Assembly (NCBI RefSeq): GCF_021730395.1
Contig: NC_069369.1
Location: 29,869,250 to 29,933,249 of the forward strand
Source of the DNA: Mercenaria mercenaria
Lineage: Eukaryota
Length of the DNA: 64,000 nucleotides
Reading direction: 5' to 3'
In this document: positions 26,053-27,715 of the stretch, piece after piece
Layout of the letters: each line of letters starts with the position of its first letter
Numbering within the stretch: position 1 is the first letter of the stretch
The notes under the pieces: model-generated
Seen by the model: only the letters and a program-made list of their open reading frames with translations
Database searches by the model: none
What the model was told of the DNA's origin: nothing
Position numbers and translations under genes: made by a program

Positions 26053-27715
26053 TAAATTAACAAGAGCTGTCCGTAAGACAGCCAAGCTCGACTATTCGAA
26101 ATATTGTCCCAGAAGCAGGAAAATATTACCCAAAAAGGTTAAATATCAAAAGAGTTTTAAGTTCAAATGGGGGAATAATTTGACCAAAATGCATATCAGT
26201 TATGGGACTTGCTGCTATCAACTAGTTTTATAACCCCGAAGGCACATGTGAAGTTCCAATTCAATATCTGCATTAGTTTTTGAGATAGAAACTTGCATGT
26301 AAAACTTTAACCAGAATTTTTAAAGTCCAAAAGGGGGCATAATTTACCCAAAATACATGCCAGAGTTATGGGACTTGATCCAGTGAGGTTAGTTATTGGT
26401 CTAGAAAAAGAAAAAATAAGTTTCAAATCTAAATGCCTTTTAGTAATAGCTGTATGTACTTGCACGCAAAACTTTAACCAGAATTTTCTAAGTCCAAAAG
26501 GGGGCATAATTTGGCCAAAATGAAGGTCAGAGATATGAGACTTGCTGCTATCAACTAGTTTTATAACCCCGAAGACACATGTGAAGTTTCAAATCAATAT
26601 CTGCATTAGTTTTGGAGATAATAACTTGCATGTAAAACTTTAACCAAAATTTTCTAAGTCTAAAAGGGGGCATAATTTGGCCAAAATGAAGGTCAGAGTT
26701 ATGAGACTTGCTGCTATCAACTAGTTTTATAACCCCGAAGACACATGTGAAGTTTCAAATCAATATCTGCATTAGTTTTGGAGATAGAAACTTGCATGTA
26801 AAACTTTAACCAAAATTTTCTTAGTCTAAAAGGGGGCATAATTTGCTCAAAAACATGTCAGAGTTATGGGACTTGACCCAGTGAGGTTGGTAATTGATCT
26901 AGAAAAAGAAAAAATAAGTTTCAAATCTATATGCCTTTTAGAAATAGCTGTATTTGCACCCAAAACTTTAACCAGAATTTTCTAAGTCCAAAAGGGGGCA
27001 TAATTTGGCCAAAATGAAGGTCAGAGTTGTGGGACTTGCTGCTATCAACTAGATTTATAACCCCGAAGACACATGTGAAGTTTCAAATCAATATCTGCAT
27101 TAGTTTTGGAGATAGAAACTTGCATGTAAAACTTTAAACAAAATTTTCTAAGTCTAAAAGGGGGCATTATTTGCTCAAAATACATGTCAGAGTTATGGGT
27201 CTTGACCCAGTGAGGTTGGTAATTGATCTAAAAAAAGAAAAAATAAGTTTCAAATCTATATGCCTTTTAGAAATAGCTGTATGTACTTGCACGCAAAACT
27301 TTAACCAGAATTTTCTAAGTCCAAAAGGGGGCATAATTTGGCCAAAATGAAAGTCAGAGTTATGGGACTTGCTGCTATCAACTAGTTTTATAACCCCGAA
27401 GACACATGCTAAGTTTCAAATCAATATCTGCATTAGTTTTGGAGATAGTAACTTGCATGTAAAACTTTAACCAAAATTTTCTAAGTCCAAAAGGGGGCAT
27501 AATTTGCTCAAAATACATGTCAGAGTTATGGGACTTGACCCAGAGAGGTTGATAATTGACCTAGAAAAAGAAAAAATAAGTTTCAAACCTATATGCCTTT
27601 AATTGATGGCTGTATGTACTTGCATGCAAAAACTTAACCAAGGTGTGACGCCGACGCCGACGCCAGGGTGAGTAGAATAGCTAGACTATTCTTCGAATAG
27701 TCGAGCTAAAAACAG
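26053..27715. mobile_element. Satellite-carrying non-autonomous element: 16-bp inverted termini AGCTCGACTATTCGAA / TTCGAATAGTCGAGCT enclosing about 10 monomers of a 160-170-bp tandem repeat (26110-27650; about 330-bp higher-order period)
   Basis: Header aacaagagctgtccgtaagacagccaagctcgactattcgaa. Array monomers ..aaaactttaaccaaaattttctaagtc.aaaagggggcataatttg.c.aaaatgaaggtcagagttatgggacttg... Tail ccgacgccgacgccagggtgagtagaatagctagactattcttcgaatagtcgagct. Confidence 0.75.

Follow-up and report, generated by a model that had tools for sequence, protein, structure and literature searches.

Satellite-like arrays in a genomic segment of Mercenaria mercenaria are very probably the cargo of non-coding Helentron-derived elements

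The 64,000-nucleotide stretch of Mercenaria mercenaria DNA analysed here (contig NC_069369.1, positions 29,869,250 to 29,933,249; hereafter the window) contains several short tandem arrays, which are very probably the cargo of non-coding Helentron-derived HINE elements, that is, of non-autonomous rolling-circle transposons. A HINE is a short non-coding derivative of an endonuclease-encoding Helitron-like transposon, and those of the window carry a satellite-like array as internal cargo. The satellite-carrying elements are real, and elements of the same kind have already been described in oysters and clams, so that their presence is ordinary for a bivalve-like genome; the copies in the window, and possibly their families, are new, the kind itself being well described. 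Arrays were located across the window with Tandem Repeats Finder (TRF), and four complete elements can be delimited, at 4576-5129 (element E), 26059-27713 (A), 28547-29935 (C) and 37970-39372 (B), together with a cluster of fragments at 62.1-64 kb. At least five types of element ends are present in the window. The original prediction, made from the letters of the DNA, had proposed four elements of two header types; the four arrays that it claimed are all recovered by TRF (26158-27640, 38637-39270, 62578-62971 and 63346-63725), and the count and the typing give way to four complete elements plus fragments, since the elements at 28547-29935 and 4576-5129 had not been listed.

All of the elements are read on the minus strand, because the published HINE/Cg_HINE have a left flank made of a 5' subterminal inverted repeat (subTIR) with its own inverted repeat and a GTCY microsatellite, and a right flank made of a 3' subTIR and a palindrome. 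Read in this direction, each element opens with a run of Ts (sometimes followed by A), continues with the 5' subTIR, which pairs with the adjacent inverted repeat as a hairpin, and then with a GTCY-type microsatellite and a spacer; 2-10 monomers of 98-171 bp follow, then a second spacer, the 3' subTIR, a short GC-rich hairpin and the tip TCT(T/A)GT, after which comes a T (TCTTGT|T). In the forward direction the 3' end reads AACAAGAG plus palindrome plus box. On the forward strand the far edge of elements A and B is a hairpin with the reverse complement of the box, followed by TAAAAAC or TAATAA. The build that had been predicted for 26059-27713 and 37970-39372, namely a header, an array, an ACGG/GACGCC microsatellite and a tail hairpin carrying the reverse complement of the header box, is borne out, with its polarity reversed: the supposed header is the 3' end and the supposed tail is the 5' end.

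The ends are asymmetric and their repeats are subterminal, which sets them apart from simple terminal inverted repeats. Complementary subTIRs lie near both ends of every complete element (16 bp in A, about 10 bp in B, 8-9 bp in C and 10 bp in E), and the short inverted repeat beside the 5' subTIR is present along with the left-flank microsatellite, which consists of runs of GGCGTC, GTCC, GTCG or GTCT. A palindrome stands between subTIR and terminus in all six 3' ends, with stems of 5-7 bp placed 0-3 nt before TCT[TA]GT; the stem sequences vary with the end type, and the structure and the TCTTGT tip are retained. The 3' palindromes and 5' hairpins all fold as single-stranded DNA; z scores span -2.2 to -7.5 in A, B, C and the pair of solo 3' ends, while element E and the type-5 end score more weakly. 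The 5' ends open with 3-9 Ts, the number of which differs between copies, and beyond the T no flanking direct repeats were read from the end sequences of the four complete copies. The anatomy of these copies and of several fragments fits HINE, and the features that define HINE/Cg_HINE in the literature were matched item by item: 5' subTIR with inverted repeat, microsatellite, central repeats, 3' subTIR with palindrome, and T-rich junctions that apparently lack a target-site duplication (TSD). The earlier suggestion of Helentron/Helitron-associated satellite carriers like those of oysters thus stands, all HINE substructures being present.

Motif counts point in the same direction. The octamer AACAAGAG occurs 10 times in the window, against 3.2 expected, and none of 100 shuffles reaches 10. 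A generic 3' signature, defined as TCT[TA]GT with the end of a perfect palindrome 0-3 nt ahead of it, has nine sites, every one of them on the minus strand, where shuffles predict 1.4 for both strands together; six of the nine are clear element ends and three were rejected. Octamer or signature sites at 29459, 32957-, 56233, 61870, 6664 and 36160 come without a palindrome or a partner subTIR and are attributed to chance, and site 39933, also considered as a HINE end, is part of an unrelated 538-bp inverted-repeat element.

The elements have no coding capacity. Outside simple repeats the window contains no open reading frames (ORFs) of at least 200 aa, and inside the elements there are none of at least 90 aa, except two that merely cross the 161-bp and 153-bp arrays. 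Scans of the window against Rfam and for tRNAs gave no matches, which means that the monomers belong to no known RNA gene.

Element A (type 1; 26059-27713, minus strand, 1655 bp) was read to both ends, and its hairpins have z scores of -3.9 (3') and -3.5 (5'). In element orientation it starts with GTTTTTAGCTCGACTATTCGAAGAATAGTCTAGC...(GGCGTC)3 and ends with ...TTCGAATAGTCGAGCTTGGCTGTCTTACGGACAGCTCTTGTT. The 3' tip TCTTGTT and the palindrome GCTGTC-ttacg-GACAGC occupy 26059-26082, the 3' subTIR TTCGAATAGTCGAGCT (26085-26100, in element orientation) is the reverse complement of 27692-27707, and the 5' end (27680-27713) comprises the T-run plus A, the 5' subTIR AGCTCGACTATTCGAA and the adjacent inverted repeat as a hairpin, with the left-flank microsatellite (GGCGTC)3 at 27647-27664. 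The central array (26118-27651) holds nine monomers of 162-168 bp and a longer first unit of 183 bp; TRF gives 26158-27640, a period of 166 bp, about 9 monomers and a dimer periodicity of 333 bp at 93% matches. Two monomer subtypes follow each other in the order a b a a b a b a b, with the first 75 bp or so in common and unrelated second halves, which suggests that the monomers are of chimeric origin.

Element B (type 2; 37970-39372, minus strand) is complete, with a 5' limit uncertain by a few T/A (39369-39385); in element orientation it starts with TTATTAGCTCACCTGTCACATAGTGACAAGGTGAGC...(GTCC/GTCG)n and ends with ...ACAGGTGAGCGATATAGGGCCATCATGGCCCTCTTGTT. Its 3' tip TCTTGTT, palindrome GGGCCATcATGGCCC and 3' subTIR ACAGGTGAGC lie at 37970-38007, and its microsatellite of GTCC/GTCG variants and its 5' subTIR/inverted-repeat hairpin GCTCACCTGTCAC-ata-GTGACAAGGTGAGC (z -6.1) at 39281-39368. 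TRF places an array of 161 bp x4 at 38637-39270, and degenerate remains of an A-like monomer were read upstream of it, at 38290-38400.

Element C (type 3; 28547-29935, minus strand; hairpin z -7.5) is also complete and ends in the tip and the palindrome GATCAC-tct-GTGATC, preceded by the subTIR GCCCACCA; an (ACGG)n microsatellite lies at 29828-29888 and the 5' hairpin at 29905-29928. It carries two consecutive unrelated arrays, 98 bp x5.8 at 28735-29303 and 166 bp x2.2 at 29312-29669. Around it stand 300-bp inverted repeats, 82% identical (28100-28378 and 30105-30403), with 168 and 169 bp between arm and element, and element C seems to sit centrally in a long-TIR (terminal inverted repeat) or foldback-like element. 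The small element E (type 4; 4576-5129, minus strand) is complete and has the weakest hairpins of the set: its 3' tip is GCTCTAGTTT, its palindrome ATCAC-cttca-GTGAT and its subTIR pair GTACCCCCCG/CGGGGGGTAC, and it holds an array of 171 bp x2 at 4704-5050 and a microsatellite at 5050-5075.

One end type shows homology with an oyster family. The conserved end Box 1 and Box 2 of Crassostrea gigas Helitron-N2_CGi/N2C_CGi have been published (Table S3 of Tunjic-Cvitanic et al. 2021, PMC8268682), and the type-2 ends of element B align to them with 34/44 identities in Box 1 and 33/36 in Box 2 (39 nt published, 36 aligned positions, two gaps), the differences lying mostly in the hairpin interiors. 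TAGCTCACCTG (11 nt including TA) is identical in Box 1 and B, as is CAGGTGAGCGAT on the 3' side, the strictly complementary part in B being about 10 bp; the full homologous ends read TAGCTCACCTG...GTGAGCTTTT.TGATCAC and CAGGTGAGCGAT...palindrome...TCTTGT. Because of these alignments, and because the flanks of CL1 (Cg_HINE_1) match Helitron-N2_CGi at 95-100% (Vojvoda Zeljko et al. 2020, PMC7492417), type 2 is, judged by its end sequences, a homologue of Cg_HINE group 1, which corresponds to Repbase Helitron-N2_CGi/N2C_CGi, with other cargo repeats.

The likeness to the C. gigas Cg_HINE extends to the order of the modules, which is the same (5' subTIR with inverted repeat and GTCY microsatellite, central repeats of 140-180 bp, 3' subTIR with palindrome), and to the presence of two consecutive arrays in some elements, as seen for element C and Cg_HINE_11_12. 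In contrast, the hairpins differ in the sequence of their inner stems and loops, types 1, 3, 4 and 5 have other subTIRs, and the central repeats differ, only the 166-bp monomer of C having a 51-bp block in common with CL1/Cg170. The Cg170/HindIII repeats of Cg_HINE group 1 are absent from B, whose 161-bp monomer is unrelated (38% identical to CL1).

Copies of the type-2 end also recur in other genomes. A probe of 20 nt from the type-2 3' end was scanned against marine metagenomes and matched 95 contigs, none of them from the species of the window. The boundary is sharp, for similarity ends directly after CTCTTGT in all 95 copies; the next base is T in 79 of them and the second base is T in 64, against a background T frequency of 0.33. 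In at least 15 of the 95 contigs a matching 5' end (TTTTTAGCTCACCTGAGC...hairpin...GTCC-microsatellite) lies 0.3-2.1 kb upstream, with the order T-run, TAGCTCACCTGAGC, hairpin, GTGAGCTATTGTGA and GTCC microsatellite. Headers and tails, which the original prediction had expected to recur at other array boundaries, are therefore found elsewhere, both as 3' ends and as paired ends. Arrays (period of at least 90 bp, within 600 bp) end inside the 3' end in 16 of 57 contigs and start outside it in 4 of 81. Ends resembling type 1 occur at the 3' side in two contigs (L042 and L062), and a homologue of the type-3 5' end is present in L042. Moreover, the 166-bp monomer of C has relatives, 70-82% identical, forming satellites at many metagenome loci. 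The best external matches to the window reach about 82% on satellite DNA only and 74% on a protein exon. Viral and prokaryotic genomes gave 240 matches to a type-1 14-mer, none longer than the 14-mer itself, and these are set down to chance, the pattern being too short. A full-text literature search with monomer and end sequence strings returned no relevant paper.

Among the other explanations, the elements could be cut-and-paste MITEs (miniature inverted-repeat transposable elements) with short terminal inverted repeats and an AA/TT TSD, mobilised by a DDE transposase. This is implied by the term 'short-TIR' in the original prediction and is how DTC84 and pearl were originally described (PMC3879986), and it would account for the presence, close to either end, of inverted repeats 8-16 bp long and for an A or T at both junctions. 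The asymmetric ends argue against it: the 5' repeat pairs with a neighbouring inverted repeat beside a microsatellite, and the 3' repeat sits some 25-30 nt inward from the terminus, with a separate hairpin and the TCTTGT tip coming after it. Copies differ in how many terminal Ts they have, as reported for Helentrons, no duplication extends beyond a single T/A, and in other taxa the same class of elements has been re-assigned to Helentrons by means of empty sites and of autonomous partners. Taken together, this leaves the MITE explanation with a slender chance.

A still more slender one is left to non-autonomous canonical Helitrons of the Helitron1 type. Repbase names the oyster homologues 'Helitron-N*_CGi' (PMC7492417), and a hairpin near the 3' terminus is common to both groups. 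The window elements, however, have no 5'-TC/3'-CTRR pair, their termini are of the form T-run...TCTTGT|T with T-rich rather than A|T junctions, and they possess subTIRs. SubTIRs, T-rich junctions and the lack of a TC/CTRR pair are marks of Helentron/Helitron2-type elements. Finally, ordinary satellites with flanks alike by chance or local segmental duplication, and no mobile element at all, would agree with the fact that 62280-63055 and 63125->64000 are not clean elements, but they can be dismissed given flank pairs in 95 unrelated contigs with different surrounding DNA and sharp boundaries, the same end architecture around different arrays, and motif counts far above those of shuffles.

Some observations weigh against the assignment to HINE. 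The subTIRs of types 2 and 3 measure only 8-10 bp, against the 11-15 bp usually quoted, and the hairpins of element E are weak (z -0.7 and -1.7). Neither the window nor the 95 metagenome loci yielded a Rep/helicase/endonuclease partner with such termini; in the loci, an ORF scan revealed no Rep/helicase ORFs on the upstream side of a 3' end. No empty site was recovered either, and the putative duplication-free insertion between two Ts is read from the statistics of the junctions and from published work.

Parallels by structure, rather than by sequence, are the DINE-1/HINE known from Drosophila, from mites and from mosquitoes (Thomas et al. 2014, PMC4067079), which are alike in their subTIRs of the 13-bp class, 5' inverted repeat, microsatellite, central repeats, 3' stem-loop, preference for TT and variable terminal Ts; an autonomous partner has been demonstrated for them (PMC4067079), in contrast to the window elements, for which none was found. 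Pearl (CvA/CvE/CvG of C. virginica) and DTC84 of Donax trunculus, both published as MITEs, follow the same plan by their description, in forward orientation: an L flank, 1-5 core repeats, (ACGG)n and an R flank, with AA at the ends (PMC3879986). As in the window, ordered repeat variants occur within their arrays, and the DTC84 palindrome TTGTCCGGACAA is resembled by the end of the 153-bp monomer of the window, ...TCCGGACAA (PMC3879986). They usually contain no more than 5 repeats, whereas array A has up to 9 monomers.

By analogy with what is established for Helentrons and Helitrons, the HINE elements of the window would be mobilised by a Helentron protein. A Rep/helicase(/endonuclease) encoded elsewhere in the genome would recognise the subTIR and hairpin ends and act in trans, and the element would be transferred as single-stranded DNA, in a rolling-circle type of process, into T-rich (TT) sites, leaving no target duplication. 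Each transposition would seed a short array at a new locus, and the seeded array could then expand, contract or recombine, unequal exchange altering the number of monomers. In this manner satellites would be scattered and might occasionally become classical satellites.

In the cluster at 62.1-64 kb all parts share one orientation. Positions 62280-63008 (minus strand) hold an internal fragment of a further element, made of a repeat of about 125 bp x2 and an array of 153 bp x2.6 (TRF, 62578-62971); the former is 73.5% similar to 38092-38198 of B. Position 62149 may represent a degenerate 3' tip. At 63009-63047 (minus strand) a solo type-2 3' end, 94.7% identical to that of B over 38 bp, adjoins the 153-bp array at box 1 of the monomer. 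The proposed element 62280-63055 does not hold together, as its header at 63009-63047 comes after the array and belongs to an element whose body lies toward higher coordinates; array and header are parts of different elements, since there is no microsatellite or hairpin tail. Next to them, 63121-63725 (minus strand) comprises a type-1 3' end (63121-63165), a spacer and an array of 166 bp x2.3 (TRF, 63346-63725), with a partial second copy of the type-1 3' tip at 63197-63216; a type-1 5' end matching 63121-63165 is not present in the window. At 63760-63928 (minus strand) lie a monomer of the 153-bp type ending in ...CCGGACAAAG, a microsatellite and a type-5 5' end with the hairpin CTCCCCCGCC-aaa-GGCGAAGGGGA, for which the window contains no 3' subTIR partner. 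The proposed element 63125->64000 has its tail at about 63860-63928 (box CTCCCCCGCC); this box and that of the type-1 header are not inverses of each other, and because the two ends do not match the structure is chimeric or nested.

The shared orientation and the stacking of ends raise a further, unlikely reading, in which HINE insertion or formation is directional, either by read-through (3'-end bypass) that swaps or stacks cargo or by strand-biased single-strand integration. The six clear HINE 3' ends are all minus-strand, with no plus-strand counterpart (window 4576-63928; two-sided p about 0.03). Strand-biased single-strand integration is known for bacterial HUH transposons. Neighbouring 3' signatures in the metagenome contigs have the same orientation in 12 cases versus the opposite one in 6, and upstream of the anchor, at distances of 49-451 bp, there are six further 3' ends on its strand. 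Tandem 3' ends in the same orientation, 50-450 bp apart, are seen at 63009-63216 of the window and in contigs L042 (199-307), L083, L053 and L094; a type-1 followed by a type-2 3' end occurs in the window (63165->63009) and, independently and with an unrelated spacer, in L042, and a unit of about 120 bp (monomer piece plus 3' end) is duplicated in L094. Satellite monomers directly outside a 3' terminus were observed in the window from 63008 downward and in L029, L054, L056 and L094, which suggests insertion into the arrays of other elements or read-through. The orientation and tandem counts are not compelling, because the density of elements is high. The C. gigas paper reports both element orientations genome-wide. 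If directionality were true, the 'unique combinations of flanks and repeats' in oysters would have a direct mechanism.

The monomers of different elements are themselves related. Those of A, of the 63.3-kb array (D), of B and of E have the boxes GGGG.CATAA.T and AAGTTT in common, about 83 bp apart, in keeping with the shared monomer blocks that had been noticed at the outset; the A and 63.3-kb monomers are 57% identical. In the 166-bp monomer of C and in C. gigas CL1 the boxes are about 53 bp apart, and AAGTTTC is common to the window monomers and CL1. The 51-bp block shared by the C monomer and CL1/Cg170 (80%, E 8e-8) is the only significant one against CL1. The bivalve superfamily BIV160/Cg170 is characterized, in the summary of Plohl et al. 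2010 given by PMC5139131, by divergent monomers of about 160-170 bp with two conserved motifs. The window monomers are of like length and keep two boxes, candidates for the two published motifs, a likeness to that summary description rather than to the BIV160 consensus, and they are compatible with an old bivalve satellite superfamily of two conserved motifs.

Other repeats are found in the window. A pair of 538-bp inverted repeats, 92.8% identical (39938-40471 and 42892-43426), encloses about 2.4 kb and is transposon-like. An interspersed repeat of 130-240 bp, MITE- or SINE-like (short interspersed nuclear element), is present between 1783 and 23472 in at least 10 copies, 76-95% identical and in both orientations, two adjacent copies of which make up the '149 bp x2' reported by TRF at 8360-8658. 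At 41156-41300 a tRNA-like segment of the minus strand (…GCTCAGTGGAAGAGCGTTCGCCTCTGGAGCGCGAGTTTCGGAGTTTGAGCCCCACCGG), which resembles a tRNA-derived SINE, comes after a (TGTC)n/(CT)n run, with ARAGORN and Rfam negative for it; the (TGTC)n at 41156-41224, considered as a HINE left flank, is instead the tail of this SINE-looking segment. A 27-bp minisatellite with 55 copies and 87% matches (9779-11280) gives long spurious ORFs on both strands. Lastly, a DUF4062 domain is encoded by an exon-like ORF (…GILGERYGWVPDKYD…) at 2789-3109 on the minus strand. A look-up of the window ORF for exact matches returned none; its closest relatives, at most 74% identical, are in eukaryote-like marine metagenome contigs, and its best match is in JGI sample 3300022205 (Ga0224511), the same sample that is rich in type-2 HINE copies. 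The host behind the best match in that sample is related but distinct.

The finding bears chiefly on annotation: the arrays of the window are to be masked and labelled as Helentron/HINE cargo, with the right strand and boundaries, and not as free satellites or MITEs. The window contributes several end types and monomer families. Several marine host genomes have kept termini of the Helitron-N2_CGi type (TAGCTCACCTG... / ...CAGGTGAGCGAT-hairpin-TCTTGT), and the cargo repeats have been exchanged. These findings open no new question; conserved termini and exchanged cargo support the existing picture, in which Helentrons disperse bivalve satellites.

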